Origin: Escherichia phage HEMP5
Length of the DNA: 64,000 bases
Sequence record: OR424388.1
Reading direction: 5' to 3' (one strand)
Shown here: in pieces, positions 2,374 to 25,019 of the stretch
How the letters are laid out: every line of letters begins with the position of its first letter
Position numbering within the stretch: position 1 is the stretch's first letter
The notes under the pieces: generated by a model
Databases searched by the model: none
What the model was told of the DNA's origin: nothing
The model's input: only the letters and a program-made list of their open reading frames with translations
Translations under genes and position numbers: made by a program

Positions 2374-2901
2374 TTATGCGAGTACCGTCTTTAACCGTTC
2401 TTCAAACTTCCGAAGAGTATTTTGGCGTTCAGCTCTTTGCTTTTTGTAAGTTTCAATACGCTCTGAAATGAGAGTGTATCGTTCATTTACTGATTCTTTC
2501 ATAAAATCAGGAATTTCACGAGAAGCTTTAATCTCGTCAAATTTATCAATAACAGCTTGCTCTTCAGCAATTAAGTTATCATACATTAAAATATCTTTCT
2601 TGATAAACTCAATATCTTCTTGAGTTACACGAGATAATTTAGATGCTTTATCCTTTTTGTACTGTTCGTTAGTATCACGAGACCAGTGTAATGTACGATT
2701 TTTATTCGTATTTTTGTAAATTTCTACAATACCGATCTCATCGATAATAACGATCCAATTCCAACGGGATTTGTAAATTTGTCCTCCATCAACAGTGATT
2801 TCACCTCCGATTGAGATGTCATTAAAGAACTTGCTTTGCGCTTCAGATTTAAATTTACCATCGTTGTAATTTACTAAGTTGAAAATATCTTTAGCGTTCA
2901 T
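2374..2901 (-). CDS. hypothetical protein (175 aa)
   Basis: ORF track; preceded by early-promoter-like element and GGAGGAACAGAAAATG RBS. Confidence 0.6.
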   Translation of the reverse strand: MNAKDIFNLVNYNDGKFKSEAQSKFFNDISIGGEITVDGGQIYKSRWNWIVIIDEIGIVEIYKNTNKNRTLHWSRDTNEQYKKDKASKLSRVTQEDIEFIKKDILMYDNLIAEEQAVIDKFDEIKASREIPDFMKESVNERYTLISERIETYKKQRAERQNTLRKFEERLKTVLA

Positions 2902-2924
2902 TTTCTGTTCCTCCGTAGTTGATA

Positions 2925-2960
2925 GTTGTATAGTACCACAGAGGAACAGTCTTGTAAACC
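2925..2960 (-). promoter_or_regulatory. T4 early-type promoter (GTTTAC -35, ~17 nt spacer, TACTATAC -10-like element)
   Basis: minus-strand reading GTTTACAAGACTGTTCCTCTGTGGTACTATACAACT directly upstream of CDS 2374..2901. Confidence 0.4.
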
Positions 2961-2961
2961 A

Positions 2962-3276
2962 CTAAAAGAAACTTCTTTCACAATTTTTTCCACTGAACCA
3001 TGCGCTTACCGCTTTCTTAGTCTCAGGAGCAGTGTTATCCATAAACCATTCAAAGGCAGCCTTTTTATGATTCTGGAGGGCTTCTCGGGCTTTAATCTGC
3101 TCACGGTCTATTAACACTAACATATGAGCCTTTCTTGTCACCATGGGCTTCTTATGATTTTTTGAATACTCCCAGTCATTTGTCCATCGCATTGTCGTTG
3201 CGAACTTAAATACTGCTTCTTTAATTTTAGTTTCGTAAATTTCACGAGCCTTTGAGTATAACATCATTACCTCCAT
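2962..3276 (-). CDS. hypothetical protein (104 aa)
   Basis: ORF track. Confidence 0.5.
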   Translation of the reverse strand: MEVMMLYSKAREIYETKIKEAVFKFATTMRWTNDWEYSKNHKKPMVTRKAHMLVLIDREQIKAREALQNHKKAAFEWFMDNTAPETKKAVSAWFSGKNCERSFF

Positions 3277-3365: not shown

Positions 3366-4334
3366 TTATTTCAGAAGAGTAACCTCAGCAATTTCTTCCC
3401 AACCGTTTTTGTCGGTCATAATAAAGTCAGCAAGATAAAGAGCAGTACGCAGTGAAACATTGCGTAAACGATTAACATTAACTTTCATCCATGATAATGC
3501 TTTATAAGTTTCTTCATCAGAAAGACCGCGCTTTTGCATCATGTCAGTTGAAAGAATAACATCTTCAACCCTGACCATAATTTCTTCATTAGTGTGAACA
3601 CCCAAATCCAAATAAACCGAGCGGGACACTAATGCTTGTAAATGTGGAGCAAGTTTAGTACCACGGTCTAATTCGCGGTCAATGTCAACGTTTGTGATAA
3701 AAACAATCGTTCCTTTAAATTCAAACTCACGCTCAATGCCTTTTTCTTCTAAGTAAGAAGACGCAGTGCTCCAGCAGACTTTACGGGTCTCTCCGGTGTC
3801 CAGAGCAGCTTTCAGAAGATTAAGAATGTCCATATCAGAGAAAACATCCACATCATCAATCAAAAGGACAGAATTCTCTTCACGATTATTCCAAAGCTGT
3901 TCATAAAGACCAATACCAGAGATTTTACCATTAATGCTTTTATATTCAATGTATCCAATATCATTTGCTTTATTTAAAGCTTTATCTAAAGAATACGTTT
4001 TACCAATGCCTGCCGCACCAGAGATAATTAATGAACGAATGTTTCCGTTAATAATACCATTCGTCATCATTCCCATAACATTAAATCTTTTATTAATGCG
4101 GGTTTTCATATCTTCATACGATTCTTTAACTTCTTCAACTTTTACACCATCATATGAAATGTCTGATTTGTAAACCCAAACACCGCGACGTTTACCGTCA
4201 ATTTCAACAAAAACTTTACCATCTCCTTGTGCATCTACTGGAGCATTATCTGGGAACCATTCGCCTAAGAGCTCAAAAGTTCCAGAGATTTCTTTACCGA
4301 AGTAGATACCCTTATTGATAGTTACAGTTTTCAT
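3366..4334 (-). CDS. AAA+/P-loop ATPase (Walker A GAAGIGKT, Walker B VLLIDDVD), ~322 aa
   Basis: ORF track ORF 3366..4478 trimmed to internal ATG at 4334 (MKTVTINKG...) which has a GGAG RBS and sits downstream of an early promoter; the longer form would read through the promoter and terminator hairpin. Confidence 0.65.
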   Translation of the reverse strand: MKTVTINKGIYFGKEISGTFELLGEWFPDNAPVDAQGDGKVFVEIDGKRRGVWVYKSDISYDGVKVEEVKESYEDMKTRINKRFNVMGMMTNGIINGNIRSLIISGAAGIGKTYSLDKALNKANDIGYIEYKSINGKISGIGLYEQLWNNREENSVLLIDDVDVFSDMDILNLLKAALDTGETRKVCWSTASSYLEEKGIEREFEFKGTIVFITNVDIDRELDRGTKLAPHLQALVSRSVYLDLGVHTNEEIMVRVEDVILSTDMMQKRGLSDEETYKALSWMKVNVNRLRNVSLRTALYLADFIMTDKNGWEEIAEVTLLK

Positions 4335-14356: not shown

Positions 14357-14935
14357 TTAATTACCACGGGCTGCATTAGCAACGGCATAAGCGTACTGAA
14401 CATTAGCGTCCTTAAACGTACCTTTAGAGGTATCTATTTCTGCCTTAAAGCCGCCTTTAGCCATAACATCGGCAAATTCTTTACGGAAAGCCATTGCATC
14501 AAGACCTTTCCATGATGATTTGTGCTTAGCGAATTCAAGACCAGCGTAGTTGACAGCCTTAGCTAATTTGTTATCAATAACCCATTTACCAGCTTTAGGC
14601 ACAAACACCGGGCCTTTCTGTTTAGAGAACAGTTTTAAATTCCAGCGACGAAGATCACTGTCGGCTTTAACAAAAGCTGCGTCTAAGTTACTAGCAACAA
14701 CATCCTGAATATGGCCAAATTTAAGCCCATCAACTTCAATATTTAGATCGGTACGCCAGCGAAGTCCTTCCCAAGCGAAGGCTTTAAAATCAGAAGCTTT
14801 TGTAGCTAAGTATCGTTCAATAGGGGCTGTTTTAGGGTCAAAGCCGTTTCCACCACGATAAGTCCACTCGTCCTTATTAATGCCTTGAGCTTTTCCTGCA
14901 AAGGCCTCGGCGATAAATTCTTTGTATGTTTTCAT
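14357..14935 (-). CDS. internal (head) protein, IPIII-sized (192 aa) with capsid-targeting sequence MKTYKEFIAE
   Basis: N-terminal CTS motif characteristic of T4 internal proteins; strong early promoter upstream. Confidence 0.75.
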   Translation of the reverse strand: MKTYKEFIAEAFAGKAQGINKDEWTYRGGNGFDPKTAPIERYLATKASDFKAFAWEGLRWRTDLNIEVDGLKFGHIQDVVASNLDAAFVKADSDLRRWNLKLFSKQKGPVFVPKAGKWVIDNKLAKAVNYAGLEFAKHKSSWKGLDAMAFRKEFADVMAKGGFKAEIDTSKGTFKDANVQYAYAVANAARGN

Positions 14936-19505: not shown

Positions 19506-19580
19506 GGCTTCTTGTTTGGTATCCCGCCCTGGGATCGAACCAGGACCGCAAACTTAGAAGGATCGTATGCTATCCATTAC
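19506..19580 (-). tRNA. tRNA-Arg (anticodon TCT)
   Basis: minus-strand GTCCCGCTGGTGTAATGGATAGCATACGATCCTTCTAAGTTTGCGGTCCTGGTTCGATCCCAGGGCGGGATACCA; cloverleaf with CCA; matches remembered T4 tRNA-Arg. Confidence 0.9.
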
Positions 19581-20225
19581 ACCAGCGGGACGTAATTTAT
19601 TTAAAAGACAAGACAAATCGGAAATCTCATCTTTTTCTAAAACTACCAAATTTTCTAAAGCTTTCCATTTACAAAGATCTCTATCTCTTTTATATCCTTT
19701 GACTTCTATATAAAAATCATAAGTGGGTAAATAAAAATCAGGAAAATAGAGATGTTCTGAACCTTCCCATTCGTAAGGAATTGGCTTTATTTTATTAGTA
19801 TATTTGATATTGTGTTCTTTTAAAAACTTAGCAACTTTTAATTCCCAGGTCCCTTTAAATTTAAACCCGTCAAACTCATATGTTTTTACTCGACCAGAAA
19901 CATTAGAAGCAGAATATGAATCAGGATTATCAAGAACAGCTTGCCGCATTCTTTTAGAATGTGCTTCTTTGCGTTCATTAGACCATACATATCCAGTATT
20001 GGCTTTTCTAAGTTTTTCTCTAGTTTTATCAGAGACTTTTATTTCTTTACCTAGTTCTTTGGCTTTGGTAAATTGATTACTACCTTTAAGACCATAACGA
20101 GGGTTATTAGGGCCGCTCATATCTAATCTATTTGGGTTAGATTTGCACCGTTTTTCATGCTGCTTTAGTGAATTTAAATTTTTACATTCTTTAGAACAAT
20201 ATTGACAAAGCATAATTTTCTCCAT
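19554..20225 (-). CDS. putative nuclease / homing-endonuclease-like protein (223 aa) between tRNA subclusters
   Basis: ORF track; N-terminal Cys/His cluster CQYCSKECKNLNSLKQHEKRC; C-terminal PDF...YIEVKG resembling a PD-(D/E)xK core; last ~9 codons overlap tRNA-Arg. Confidence 0.5.
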   Translation of the reverse strand: MEKIMLCQYCSKECKNLNSLKQHEKRCKSNPNRLDMSGPNNPRYGLKGSNQFTKAKELGKEIKVSDKTREKLRKANTGYVWSNERKEAHSKRMRQAVLDNPDSYSASNVSGRVKTYEFDGFKFKGTWELKVAKFLKEHNIKYTNKIKPIPYEWEGSEHLYFPDFYLPTYDFYIEVKGYKRDRDLCKWKALENLVVLEKDEISDLSCLLNKLRPAGVMDSIRSF

Positions 20226-20695: not shown

Positions 20696-20782
20696 TGGTG
20701 CGAGAAGTGGGACTCGAACCCACAAGGAAATCATTCCGCAGCATTTTAAGTGCTGTGCCTTTACCAATTTGACCATTCTCGC
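20696..20782 (-). tRNA. tRNA-Leu (anticodon TAA, long variable arm)
   Basis: minus-strand GCGAGAATGGTCAAATTGGTAAAGGCACAGCACTTAAAATGCTG...GGGTTCGAGTCCCACTTCTCGCACCA. Confidence 0.85.
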
Positions 20783-20788
20783 GCTATA

Positions 20789-21421
20789 TTATTTATTACG
20801 TGAAAAAGACTGTTCTATCAATTCTGGACACTTTCGTTCTATCCATTTTCTAGCTTTTTGTGGGCTTATACCTATTATTTTAGCAGCTTTACTAACCCAT
20901 CCAAATTTAGAATAATCGATTTTAACTAATTCTTCGTAAATTTCATCAGTTAAAATCTTTTCATTAATATTTACCAGTAAATGATATAATTTATTATCAT
21001 TAGCAATTTTAATGAATCTTTTATAGTTTCCGCCTTTACTTAAACCTAATGAAGTAATTGCAGATGATATAGTAGCCGAATTTAATAGTGCGTTTAAAAT
21101 TTCTTCATCACTAACATTATAACGCTTTCTATTATTTTTAATATTTTTACCAGCAAAAGTATCAGTTTGCGAATGGCAATTTGGACATAATAATCTTAAA
21201 TTTGATTTAAGATGATTTTTGTTATTTCCATCAATATGGTCTAATTGTAGAACAATATGCTTATTTTGCCATTTTGAAATTTTACAAATTGCGCACTCAT
21301 ATGGAAAAATATTTTCTTTTATTATTTTGTCTTTCAGCTTTCCTGTACTAAAATTTGGATGTTTTCCTTCAAAAATTTCAGCTAATTTAGTATCCATAAT
21401 ATGATTCCCAATTATTAACAA
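20789..21421 (-). CDS. HNH-family homing-endonuclease-like protein (210 aa)
   Basis: CAICKISKW...LQLDHIDGNNKNHLKSNLRLLCPNCHSQTD is a canonical HNH/zinc-finger motif; stop codon 3 nt from tRNA-Leu 5' end. Confidence 0.8.
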   Translation of the reverse strand: MLIIGNHIMDTKLAEIFEGKHPNFSTGKLKDKIIKENIFPYECAICKISKWQNKHIVLQLDHIDGNNKNHLKSNLRLLCPNCHSQTDTFAGKNIKNNRKRYNVSDEEILNALLNSATISSAITSLGLSKGGNYKRFIKIANDNKLYHLLVNINEKILTDEIYEELVKIDYSKFGWVSKAAKIIGISPQKARKWIERKCPELIEQSFSRNK

Positions 21422-21496
21422 AGGCTCTCAAACAAGAACCCTTGATGATAGAGGGTATTAATCAGTGCGGTATGAGTTAATAATAACAAATAATTC

Positions 21497-22012
21497 TTAA
21501 AGCAAATTAAACATTTTAACGGTAGGCAAAACAATTTCTTCTTCTATATAAGAGTATTTAACACTCTCAACTACACGCAAAAAATCATAATCATAATACT
21601 CAGAAGCATTACCTAAAATATTAATAAGTCCTTCAAGCACTTTATTACCATTCACAAAGAATAAGTCAAATACACGTTCTTCATCTTCTTCAGATTTATT
21701 ACCAAGATCAACTTCTATGCGAAAGACCTTTTTAATGAATTCTGGATAAAGCTGGTCTGAGAACAGTCCTTCAACTAAGTATTCATAAATAAAAAGAGAT
21801 TGCTCGCTGAACAAACCATTACCACAATAGCGCTCAATTTTAGTACTAGAATATCTGCTTTTAAACTTCTTTAAAAGATACTGAAATTGTAAGATTTCAT
21901 GCTCTTCTACGCCAAACAGTGTTTTGGTTTTATAGTTGTCACCATCATTTTCCCAGGTAGTGACATCAATTACGTAGCCCTGCGGAATTGTAGTACCTAA
22001 ACAAATATTCAT
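21497..22012 (-). CDS. hypothetical protein (171 aa), acidic
   Basis: ORF track; tightly packed with the next two genes. Confidence 0.55.
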   Translation of the reverse strand: MNICLGTTIPQGYVIDVTTWENDGDNYKTKTLFGVEEHEILQFQYLLKKFKSRYSSTKIERYCGNGLFSEQSLFIYEYLVEGLFSDQLYPEFIKKVFRIEVDLGNKSEEDEERVFDLFFVNGNKVLEGLINILGNASEYYDYDFLRVVESVKYSYIEEEIVLPTVKMFNLL

Positions 22013-22015
22013 TTT

Positions 22016-22312
22016 TCACCACGCTGCGTTAATGTAAGTATATTTAATACATTCAAGACCCAAAGGATTCTTGAAAATATCATATTCAAGAGGACCTTTT
22101 TCTGTTTCAATAAAGAAATCAAAATTTACTGTATTAAATTTACGGTCTTCCTTCACTAATTTAACTTGTGAAGATGAACGGTCAATGTAAACCTTTTCAA
22201 CTTCAAAACATGTTAAAATGCCATAATCATCAATCAAGGCTTTAGCTGCTTCTTGATCATATTTATATCCATTTTCAATGGATGATACTTTAGCATAAAG
22301 AATCATTATCAA
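22016..22312 (-). CDS. hypothetical protein (98 aa)
   Basis: ORF track. Confidence 0.55.
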   Translation of the reverse strand: MIMILYAKVSSIENGYKYDQEAAKALIDDYGILTCFEVEKVYIDRSSSQVKLVKEDRKFNTVNFDFFIETEKGPLEYDIFKNPLGLECIKYTYINAAW

Positions 22313-22710
22313 CCTTCATCAACAACAGTATGCGTATTGGCATTTACGATTTGCCACCAATCAAAGCGATTAGAACCATACATCGGTTTGTTTTCATTTT
22401 CTTTGATAATGTCACGGAGTTCATCTTCAGAGAATGCTTTAGCGATTAAATCGGTATACCCACCACGTGGATAATAATTATCACCTGCAAACAAAAGGAA
22501 ATTTACCTTCCCGGAAGGAACATACGCTTCCTTAGGATACTTGTTTCCTGCGTGGTCAACCACTTCAATATAACGGTAAGGAATATCGGTTCTTTCAACC
22601 CATTGCCATGCCGCTGCAGGGGAATCGAAAGCATCTACACCTAAACGATTATCTTCATCTTTAGACGGATTATTTTCGTAATCCGCATATACATAATATT
22701 CAACGTTCAT
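22309..22710 (-). CDS. hypothetical protein (133 aa)
   Basis: ORF track; 4-nt overlap with downstream gene. Confidence 0.55.
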   Translation of the reverse strand: MNVEYYVYADYENNPSKDEDNRLGVDAFDSPAAAWQWVERTDIPYRYIEVVDHAGNKYPKEAYVPSGKVNFLLFAGDNYYPRGGYTDLIAKAFSEDELRDIIKENENKPMYGSNRFDWWQIVNANTHTVVDEG

Positions 22711-22895
22711 TATTCACCTTTAGAAATTTTATCCATAACGATAGCAATTAAACCAATTAAAAATGCTACTACAAGTGAAAAAACATTTTCTGCCGTAGTC
22801 AATAATCCGCATATAAATCCAACAAACATTGAAAAACTGAAAGCGGAAGCAGAAATTGCAATAGCAACATTTCGAATTAATTCACAGCGTTTCAT
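22710..22895 (-). CDS. small membrane protein (61 aa, single/double TM)
   Basis: track ORF 22710..23036 trimmed to ATG 22895 (MKRCELIRNVAIAISASAFSFSMFVGFICGLL...) with GAGGAG RBS downstream of early promoter; longer form would overlap the IP gene. Confidence 0.5.
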   Translation of the reverse strand: MKRCELIRNVAIAISASAFSFSMFVGFICGLLTTAENVFSLVVAFLIGLIAIVMDKISKGE

Positions 22896-22919
22896 TTTAT
22901 TCTCCTCAGTAGTTGATAG

Positions 22920-22953
22920 GGTAATAGTATCACTACCCCATCTAAAAGTAAAT
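22920..22953 (-). promoter_or_regulatory. early-type promoter-like element (ATTTAC -35 variant, GTGATACTATTAC -10 region)
   Basis: -10 region identical to that at 23216..23234. Confidence 0.35.
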
Positions 22954-23187
22954 TTATTTTTTACGAAAAATTGATTTATTTTCTGCTGCCCATTTTTCAA
23001 TAACTGCAGCAGGACCAGTAACAACAATTTTATCACCGTAAACTTCTGCGGCGAGTTGACCGAAATTATCTAATGCATCACGAAGAACTCCATGAGGCAT
23101 TTCACCCATTTTATCTTTCTTGCCGGTGTAAATAAACTCAACTTTTGCATCAGAAGATTCAGCGATAAATTCTTTGAAAGTTTTCAT
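22954..23187 (-). CDS. internal-protein-like small protein with CTS MKTFKEFIAE (~77 aa)
   Basis: track ORF 22954..23199 trimmed to CTS Met; own promoter and leader. Confidence 0.6.
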   Translation of the reverse strand: MKTFKEFIAESSDAKVEFIYTGKKDKMGEMPHGVLRDALDNFGQLAAEVYGDKIVVTGPAAVIEKWAAENKSIFRKK

Positions 23188-23221
23188 TTTAGTTTCCATT
23201 CGATTGTTTTGTTTTGATAGG

Positions 23222-23254
23222 GTAATAGTATCACAACTAAAACCCTATGTAAAC
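23222..23254 (-). promoter_or_regulatory. T4 early-type promoter with conserved leader
   Basis: minus-strand GTTTACATAGGGTTTTAGTTGTGATACTATTACC; 32-nt leader ATGTAAACAACTTTGTGAAATTATTTTAAATC repeated at 23576..23607. Confidence 0.4.
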
Positions 23255-23266
23255 AACTTTGTGAAA

Positions 23267-23524
23267 TTATTTTAAATCTTCTAATCGTTTCTTCATCTTA
23301 GAACCATTTTTAGCAATTTCTCCTGCATCGGAGCATAATGCTAAAAGTGCTTTAACTTTAGTTTGGTCTCCTTTAAAAGATGAAGGATCGACTGCAGCAG
23401 CAAGTTCTTTAATACGAGAGAAAAGACGCTCAGCTTCAGCTAAAGCCATTCCAAGCTTTACTTCCATACCGTGAGAAGATTCAGTGATAGTAGTTTTTGT
23501 AGCAAACTCTTTGAAAGTTTTCAT
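23267..23524 (-). CDS. internal protein (ipI-locus position), 85 aa with CTS MKTFKEF
   Basis: CTS motif; body homologous to the IP at 15222..15503 (shared ...KLG.AL.EAE.L..RI.ELA...KALL..C...EIAKNGS.MK.RLE...). Confidence 0.65.
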   Translation of the reverse strand: MKTFKEFATKTTITESSHGMEVKLGMALAEAERLFSRIKELAAAVDPSSFKGDQTKVKALLALCSDAGEIAKNGSKMKKRLEDLK

Positions 23525-23549
23525 TTTATTTTCCTAATTAATTTTGATG

Positions 23550-23583
23550 AGATAATAGTATCACTATCTCATCAGCATGTAAA
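23550..23583 (-). promoter_or_regulatory. T4 early-type promoter with conserved leader
   Basis: minus-strand GTTTACATGCTGATGAGATAGTGATACTATTATC. Confidence 0.4.
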
Positions 23584-23596
23584 CAACTTTGTGAAA

Positions 23597-24293
<697 letters not shown>

Positions 24294-24294
<1 letters not shown>

Positions 24295-25019
24295 TATAGT
24301 ACCTTTAGTGTATTTTTAATTTTAGAAAAAAGTTCTTCAAGAGAACCATCGTTTGTAATTACTAAATCGCCATCACGAATTGGCAATCCAGCTTCTGTAA
24401 TATGTGTATCATTGGATTTTTGACCAGGACGAACTACATGAATTACTGTAGCACCCATCGCCCTAGCCGCATCCATTTCATGATCTTGACGGGTATCAGG
24501 AACGATATAATAATCATAACCTGAGTTAAATTTATCAAGATAATCTAAAGCAAATAATTTTACCCAGTACATGCGGTCGAAGTTATTAACAATCAAATCC
24601 GTACCTAGGGCTTGCATCAGACGACGGACTGACCATTGATCTTCAATATTATTTATAACGTCAGTAATTTTGTTAAATGCTACGAAATTAACTGATTCTT
24701 TTCCTTCGTCGTCAAAAACAAACACGCCTTTAATCGGGCTTTTACTATTAAGATAGCAAAATGCTTGTTCCATAATCATAATTACTTCTAATTTAGTCAA
24801 ATTCAAATTAGTCTCACGATCATAGTCAATTCCTTCAAACTCTTTACGAGTTAAGCAAGGATAATCATTGTTTGCAGCAAATACACCCCATGCATAAGCC
24901 AATGCATCCTTAATAGGACCAGCAAGTTGATATTTAACTGCAGAATAATTATTCATGATAAAATCTGCAGTAGTATCTTTTCCACTACGCTTTACACCAC
25001 TTAAAAAGATTAGTTTCAT
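24294..25019 (-). CDS. 1: deoxynucleoside monophosphate kinase (gene 1), 241 aa
   Basis: P-loop GVKRSGKDT; size and order 57A-1-3-2-4. Confidence 0.92.

Follow-up and report, generated by a model that had tools for sequence, protein, structure and literature searches.

We analysed positions 20789–23524 of a 64-kb window from Escherichia phage HEMP5 (OR424388.1); the window is the whole stretch of DNA that was examined, and its numbering is used throughout. The source phage belongs to Tequatrovirus. All genes between 20600 and 24300 are on the minus strand, as are the promoter cassettes and tRNA features described below, and the interval lies between two conserved flanks. The upstream flank is 57B (23597–24052), which is 96% identical to T4 at the DNA level, stands outside the variable content and, judged by its Pfam Acb1 match (2.6e-60), encodes the anti-CBASS protein (nuclease) Acb1. 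The downstream flank is tRNA-Leu (UAA) (20696–20782; ARAGORN and Rfam tRNA), which is 100% identical to T4 and is followed by the remainder of the T4-type tRNA set. Between these flanks are seven open reading frames (ORFs), which read, in the direction of transcription, ip5, ip6, trna.4, trna.3, trna.2, a gene for a 171-amino-acid (aa) acidic protein, and a gene for an HNH homing-type endonuclease. With a probability of roughly 0.88, the interval represents a known locus, the hyperplastic region that separates 57B from the tRNA genes, and is a mosaic of alleles catalogued in T2, T4 and T6 plus the HNH gene.

An original prediction, made from the sequence of the window, had listed the same seven ORFs, and all of them are present on the minus strand at about the coordinates first given. 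Three start codons differ, and are placed here at 21397 for the HNH gene, 22306 for trna.2 and 23187 for ip6.

The 3-kb region matches 734 phage records, among which ES12, ES26, Killian and a51 match end to end at 97–98% identity. According to the record annotations, the gene order is 57B–Ip5–Ip6–Trna.4–Trna.3–Trna.2–tRNA-Gln in T6 and 57B–ip5–ip7–Trna.4–Trna.2–RB32ORF134c–tRNA-Gln in T2, while in the T4 reference tRNA-Gln and ipI are separated by trna.2, trna.3 and trna.4. The window is collinear with T6 over 22041–24300 (92.8% DNA identity) and with T2 over 21404–22316 (90.7% DNA identity), and its positions 22041–22933 align to T4 at 85% DNA identity. In particular, the window shares with the T6 allele the order 57B–ip5–ip6–trna.4–trna.3–trna.2 and an identical Ip5, but it adds the 171-aa gene, as T2 does, and carries the HNH gene at the T6 tRNA-Gln site. 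Only 20786–21403, 21517–22040 and 22934–23489, about 1.7 kb in all, are without a T4 counterpart; these segments are also found in T2 or T6, except 20786–21403, the HNH cassette, which is missing from both. The original prediction had credited T4 with only tRNA-Gln and ipI at this place and had put the different content at about 2.6 kb, an account that the T4 genes trna.2 to trna.4 and the figure of 1.7 kb replace.

Five of the seven genes are orthologs of T4 or T6 genes at the same position. Specifically, trna.2, trna.3 and trna.4 are all syntenic in T4 and T6, and trna.2 and trna.4 only in T2; protein identities, annotations and DNA alignments exclude non-syntenic orthology for the named T4, T6 and T2 genes. 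Two of the three ORFs that had first been taken for unknown, together with the membrane protein, thus occupy the same position in T4 itself, where no function is known for them. The pieces vary independently among phages: T2 is without trna.3 and ip6, T4 and T6 are without the 171-aa gene, and most phages are without the HNH gene. The pieces of the interval therefore do not act as a single module.

The locus is already known, and it, the names of its genes and the mechanism of their shuffling are in the T-even literature of 1994–2014. The ipI/57B–tRNA hyperplastic locus of T-even phages is attributed to Repoila et al. (1994), as cited in PMC12373910 and PMC4122927.

Internal protein genes and their promoter cassettes

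The two genes directly downstream of 57B are ip5 (23267–23524, 85 aa) and ip6 (22954–23187, 77 aa). The ip5 product has the sequence of UniRef 'Ip5' Q38630_BPT6 (phrog_3499, 1.2e-49); it is identical to T6 Ip5 and common to 43 Tequatrovirus UniRef entries, and both T6 and T2 annotate Ip5 here. The ip6 product matches phrog_8111, 'internal virion protein' (2.5e-49), is 91% identical to T6 Ip6 at the protein level, and belongs to a family labelled ipVI/ip6 in phages PST and VR7. These comparisons show less variation in Ip5, which many phages share unchanged, than in Ip6: the exact Ip6 sequence is absent from a collection of 15 billion proteins and most records are 92% identical to it; its best phage match, in Yersinia phage PYps32T, reaches 98.7%.

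Both proteins carry the capsid-targeting motif MKT(F/Y)(K/Q)EF at their very start (MKTFKEFATK in Ip5 and MKTFKEFIAE in Ip6), the corrected start at 23187 placing the targeting sequence at the N-terminus of Ip6. In T4 head assembly, the prohead protease cuts at an (I/L)-x-E motif that closely follows the targeting sequence. In Ip5, the targeting sequence MKTFKEFATKTTITE is followed by a predicted prohead-protease cut at I-T-E (residues 13–15), and in Ip6 the corresponding motif is I-A-E (residues 8–10). The predicted mature forms are a 70-aa Ip5 with an isoelectric point (pI) of 9.2 and a 67-aa Ip6 with a pI of 8.0.

The N-terminal motif, the protease-type cut site and the small size liken Ip5 and Ip6 to Ip1, Ip2 and Ip3 of T4, and ip5 and ip6 share with the Ip1 gene the same locus and promoter cassette. 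Unlike this shared N-terminus, the sequence past the targeting sequence shows no similarity to the T4 proteins, and only the first dozen or so residues are common to Ip5, Ip6 and T4 IPI. From the motif and the biology of the T4 Ip proteins, Ip5 and Ip6 would be packaged in the prohead, lose their N-termini to the prohead protease after ...ITE and ...IAE, respectively, and be injected with the DNA. Each of T4 Ip1, Ip2 and Ip3 inhibits a different GmrSD type IV restriction enzyme, without cross-protection (PMC12373910), and IPIII acts in the host cytoplasm (PMC9391042). By analogy with Ip1–3, Ip5 and Ip6 are probably injected anti-restriction proteins, and would most likely protect glucosyl-hydroxymethylcytosine DNA by blocking a host nuclease, the part played by Ip1, Ip2 and Ip3. 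The original prediction of a hyperplastic region of early genes, with IP-type genes that are plausibly anti-defence, is in agreement with this analogy (PMC12373910). Ip5 and Ip6 are not classed as GmrSD inhibitors here, and our literature search returned no paper linking Ip5 with GmrSD.

The only other ORF in the window that bears the motif lies at 14357–14935 on the minus strand; it encodes 192 aa starting MKTYKEFIAEA and, on its sequence and its size, which is that of T4 IPIII, looks IPIII-like, an ipIII-type gene.

As had been predicted for the two MKTFKEF proteins, ip5 and ip6 are each behind a T4-type early promoter, GTTTACA–17 nucleotides (nt)–TGaTACTAT. Each promoter is part of a promoter-early stem-loop (PeSL)-type cassette. 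The cassette before ip5 (23525–23596) has a fold z-score of −3.03 and is near-identical to the T4 cassette before ipI. The cassette before ip6 (23188–23266) has a stem-loop that spans the −10 element and a fold z-score of −4.09. A third cassette stands before trna.4 (22896–22953), with a weak −35 element (ATTTAC), a TGaTACTAT −10 element within a 12-bp stem-loop, a fold z-score of −2.95 and a GAGGAG ribosome-binding site; it belongs to the same repeat family, D1, and was aligned with T4 cassettes. The window cassettes align with those before ipI and trna.4 in T4.

The cassettes form a direct repeat of 71 nt that is 82% identical between the ip5 and ip6 copies and has a weaker copy before trna.4. 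The three copies are spaced 301 and 330 nt apart and are 61–82% identical, and each comprises a 12–13-bp inverted repeat enclosing the −10 element (z-scores −2.95 to −4.09 against shuffled sequences) and a ribosome-binding site. The repeated copies flank variable ORFs, in that the genes between them differ among T2, T4 and T6. These features are those of the PeSLs of T4-type phages (Arbiol 2010, Comeau 2014), with which the cassettes share the early-promoter consensus, the stem-loop overlapping the −10 element, the ribosome-binding site at the 3′ end, the repetition between variable ORFs and the location in a hyperplastic region. Specifically, the PeSL consensus for the PST/T4 phage pair is TTTACW-N17-TAYWAT (PMC4122927), and TTTACA, 17 nt and TACTAT are found before both ip5 and ip6; the PeSL stem-loop lies between the −35 and −10 elements or overlaps the −10 element (PMC2839356), and the window stem-loops do the latter. 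The window stems are A/T-rich with G-U pairs, unlike the PeSLs of phage RB49, which have G/C tracts. A simple consensus scan found no terminator in the window cassettes.

The repeat extends into coding sequence, covering the last four codons and the stop codon of the upstream gene (23525–23612 and 23200–23282, minus strand). The genes that end inside it are 57B, which terminates in ...DDLK-stop, and ip5, which terminates in ...EDLK-stop, so that both end in ...DLK-stop. With the final four codons of both 57B and ip5 lying inside the repeat, the C-terminal residues of these two unrelated proteins appear to have been fixed by cassette exchange.

The repeat structure is observed directly, and its layout is consistent with the mechanism that the PeSL papers propose and that is borrowed here by analogy, namely homologous recombination that exchanges cassettes. 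The cassettes would give each unit its own early expression and would offer about 70 nt of homology for swaps between co-infecting phages, and swapping of this kind may have replaced ipI here by ip5 and ip6.

A fourth promoter-like site differs in type. A pattern search found a middle-promoter-like site at 21480–21506, composed of a MotA box, TTTGCTTTA, 12 nt and TATTAT. The site and the end of the 171-aa ORF overlap, and both T4 and phage 107 conserve the site in front of tRNA-Gln. On its sequence and its position ahead of the HNH gene and the tRNA cluster, this MotA-type site is a candidate middle promoter, and because it stands ahead of the HNH gene, that gene would be the first in the tRNA transcription unit. 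A single copy of the late-promoter motif TATAAATA is found in the interval, at 22260–22267 inside trna.2, and we treat it as a chance match; a second match (24650–24657) is outside the interval.

Taken together, the interval would comprise three early transcription units and one middle promoter, in the minus-strand order PeSL cassette–ip5, PeSL cassette–ip6, PeSL cassette–trna.4–trna.3–trna.2–171-aa gene, and MotA-type promoter–HNH–tRNA cluster.

An HNH gene in the place of tRNA-Gln

The HNH homing-type endonuclease gene (20789–21397, 202 aa) had been correctly recognized as encoding an HNH endonuclease. The protein matches phrog_14736 (6e-124) and a PADLOC homing endonuclease profile (2.4e-19), and has an HNH/zinc-finger core, CAIC...DHIDGNNKNH...CPNCH, in which the CxxC pairs and the H-N-H residues are visible, as well as a helix-turn-helix at its C-terminus; it also has weak Pfam matches to HNH and HTH. 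Its start is most likely the ATG at 21397, as in most public records, and the TTG at 21421 is improbable. The exact protein also occurs in phages a51 and T4_ev151, and the gene is present at ≥95% identity in 63 phage records (60 at ≥99% and three at 95–99%), while many close relatives have tRNA-Gln at the HNH site. The next relatives are the HNH enzymes of T5 and BF23, including hegA/F-TflIV, at 35–48% identity.

The window as a whole holds seven tRNA genes, and ARAGORN finds no tRNA-Gln anywhere in it; an Rfam scan returns tRNAs alone above threshold, with one sub-threshold sX4 match that overlaps tRNA genes. Remnants of tRNA-Gln border the HNH cassette on both sides. On the 3′ side, the identity with T4 stops at 20785 and the remnant is 'AG' (20784–20785; alignment with T4 and phage 107). 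On the 5′ side, TGGGAAT (21404–21410; alignments A1 and A2), from the acceptor-stem strand, stands just upstream of the HNH start codon, where it could supply a GGGA ribosome-binding site for the HNH gene. The junctions are clean against both T4 and phage 107, and the HNH cassette replaces 64 nt of the tRNA-Gln interior.

Both the replacement and the presence/absence polymorphism are observed. The pattern is that of a free-standing homing endonuclease, like SegB, a homing endonuclease in the T-even tRNA cluster (PMC2330249). Named parallels exist in two families: SegB (GIY-YIG, T4) and HNH enzymes of T5 and BF23, such as F-TflIV (hegA), are likewise selfish nuclease genes within a tRNA cluster that are present or absent among close relatives, and the HNH cores of T5 ORF070 and BF23 hegA are 35–48% identical to that of the window protein. 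SegB differs in belonging to another family and in sitting between tRNA genes, whereas the window HNH gene replaces one. The HNH gene would thus be a selfish element that spreads in mixed infection by cutting HNH-less genomes, cleavage being a presumed activity of its product. The ORFs called 'trna.1' and 'trna.2' in the SegB paper are different ORFs, of T2L (PMC2330249).

The trna.4–trna.3–trna.2 operon and the 171-aa protein

The third cassette is followed by four closely packed genes. The first is trna.4 (22710–22895, 61 aa), whose product is 100% identical to T4 Trna.4 and has two transmembrane helices by hydropathy; these two hydrophobic helices are those of the membrane protein that had been predicted. 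The next are trna.3 (22309–22710, 133 aa), with a product 64% identical to T4 Trna.3 and an AF2 model of pLDDT 85, and trna.2 (22016–22306, 96 aa; start corrected to the ATG at 22306), with a product 97% identical to T4 Trna.2 and the same position in T4, T6 and T2. The last is the gene for the 171-aa acidic protein (21497–22012), which matches phrog_2290, the RB32ORF134c family, over residues 1–170 (9.4e-68). The 171-aa protein, Trna.2 and Trna.3 are acidic (pI 4.55, 4.78 and 4.47), and the description of three tightly packed acidic ORFs holds in both respects; trna.4 and trna.3 overlap by 1 nt, and the next two junctions are gaps of 2 and 3 nt. The three ORFs had also been regarded as belonging to no assignable family, and are instead orthologs of T4 trna.2 and trna.3 and of T2 RB32ORF134c.

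Trna.3 combines a variable N-terminal domain with a conserved C-terminal domain (alignment A6). Two N-terminal allele types (residues 1–65 or so) occur on the conserved C-terminal domain, NFLLFAGDNYYPRGGY...FDWWQIVNA; T4_ev151 has the exact HNH protein of the window but the other Trna.3 allele, at 57% identity. The six non-HNH proteins of the interval returned nothing in Pfam, NCBIfam, PADLOC and PDB sequence or profile searches, and Trna.3 homologs carry a precomputed Pfam assignment, PF26894, a family outside the Pfam set scanned here. When the DRT1 defence protein was pulled down, T4 Trna.2 and just one other phage protein were enriched, a result that the authors took no further (PMC13275509). 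In the literature searched, no phenotype is reported for trna.2, trna.3, trna.4 or the 171-aa gene.

The 171-aa gene is in T2 (86.5% aa identity, annotated 'RB32ORF134c') and is not in T4 or T6. Its family occurs in 572 phage records, with identity reaching its lowest, 27–36%, in Klebsiella, Aeromonas, Cronobacter, Yersinia and Providencia phages, and is confined to phages (214 members by profile search and 241 representatives by exhaustive search). G12, E21, N22, D23, D25 and R146 are invariant. The AF2 model is confident, and the predicted fold has no solved relative; the invariant E-N-D-G-D hairpin and the invariant Arg look like a metal- or ligand-binding site.

Four long repetitive proteins (P0195, P0208, P0227 and P0248; 810–5535 aa) also matched the 171-aa protein at E values of 1e-9 to 1e-25, over multiple short stretches. 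P0208 was rejected as a fusion, with no similarity in BLASTP with composition-based statistics and zero qualifying stretches among its Pfam matches, and so were P0227 and P0248, which are secreted, consist of Kelch/fibronectin-repeat sequence and bear type IX secretion tails. These giant or secreted matches, of which P0208, P0227 and P0248 were checked, look like compositional artefacts.

Our best, weakly supported guess is that the four small early proteins would be early accessory host-interaction proteins. A more specific proposal, that one or more products of the operon inhibit or trigger a host defence system, is tentative and in our estimate falls clearly short of an even chance. It draws on the three soluble products, which are small, acidic (pI 4.5–4.8) and early, like many anti-restriction proteins; on the N-terminal allele swaps of Trna.3 over a conserved C-terminal domain, a pattern of arms-race proteins; on the enrichment of Trna.2 with DRT1; and on the confident 171-aa fold with its invariant hairpin and Arg. 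It is countered by the zero matches in PADLOC, Pfam, NCBIfam and PDB, by uninformative fold searches, by the DRT1 authors having left Trna.2 aside, and by the lack of a phenotype in the literature searched. That one of the function-unassigned early proteins, with the 171-aa protein and Trna.2 as the candidates, represents a novel type of counter-defence or host-takeover factor is less probable again, and we regard it as unlikely. With its wide conservation and confident fold prediction, the 171-aa family is a reasonable target for a defence-system screen.

A role of the 171-aa protein on tRNA (processing, repair or protection) is suggested by the adjacent tRNA genes, and its homologs are indeed inside or beside a tRNA cluster in T2, Klebsiella phage Mexia, Aeromonas phage L9-6 and Yersinia phage TG1. 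However, no tRNA gene lies within 5 kb of three distant members of the family, found on large phage contigs, and similarity to RNA-binding or RNA-repair folds is not above noise. Because of these three members, we read the linkage as inherited gene order in T4-like phages and reject a tRNA-linked function, which we consider very improbable.

Weighing the readings of the interval

Several observations weigh against parts of the account given here, in which the interval is a mosaic of known alleles with early-expressed, anti-restriction-type internal proteins and a homing-type endonuclease. The −35 element of the cassette before trna.4 is degraded, and the function of the four-gene operon is only a guess. 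The Pfam HNH match scores 17.3 bits, under the gathering threshold of 21.4. For Ip5 and Ip6, packaging and injection in this phage are predicted from the targeting motif, and in published tests none of ip4–10 reproducibly inhibited the GmrSD variants that were assayed (PMC12373910). T2 (Ip5 and Ip7) and T6 (Ip5 and Ip6) are restricted by GmrSD from ECOR17 and ECOR21. Given the negative ip4–10 tests and the restriction of T2 and T6, an anti-GmrSD role of Ip5 and Ip6, as drawn by analogy, is unproven.

The original prediction went further and proposed an undescribed, non-T4 accessory island acting as one host-takeover or counter-defence module. Its genes are early, small and unannotated, and they lie in a hyperplastic region beside the anti-CBASS gene acb1 (57B), in phages whose relatives include T4, where Ip proteins are anti-restriction factors. 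The orthology of five of the seven genes with T4 and T6 genes at the same position, the presence of the 171-aa gene in T2 and in 572 records, and the independent variation of the pieces speak against it, however, and its novelty and unity are already refuted: the genes are catalogued, Ip5 and Ip6 were named in the 1994 T-even literature, and ip4–10 have been tested against GmrSD. We give such an island an even smaller chance than the tRNA role. That some of the ORFs are not real genes, as mechanical ORF lists and odd names in some public records might suggest, is next to impossible and already refuted by conservation, since comparative analysis supports coding throughout: no ORF has a PHROG family match weaker than 1e-35, hundreds of phage records conserve each of them (the 171-aa protein down to 27–36% identity), and the AF2 models are confident.

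The mosaic of catalogued alleles thus has low value as a discovery, since hundreds of sequenced phages share the same pieces. The useful result is a corrected annotation, in which names are given to Ip5, Ip6, Trna.2, Trna.3, Trna.4 and the RB32ORF134c family, tRNA-Gln is shown to have given way to the HNH gene, and 57B is identified as Acb1. Labels in other records are misleading in places. 57B is called 'RNA ligase' in RefSeq records and PHROGs and 'distal tail protein' in phage Killian, and the Killian record also labels Trna.2 (2816–3106) 'central straight tail fiber' and Ip5 (4061–4318) 'MazF family toxin-antitoxin system protein'.

Elsewhere in the tRNA cluster, a 223-aa nuclease is encoded at 19554–20225 (minus strand), between tRNA-Arg and tRNA-Ile(CAU), in the slot of the GIY-YIG gene SegB in T4 and T6. 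The protein shows no similarity to T4 SegB (BLASTP E value 0.59). It matches phrog_15137, 'endonuclease' (1.2e-40), and weakly Pfam Phage_endo_I, and its N-terminus contains a zinc-finger-like CxxC...HxxxC. The gene appears to be a second case of endonuclease exchange within the same tRNA cluster.

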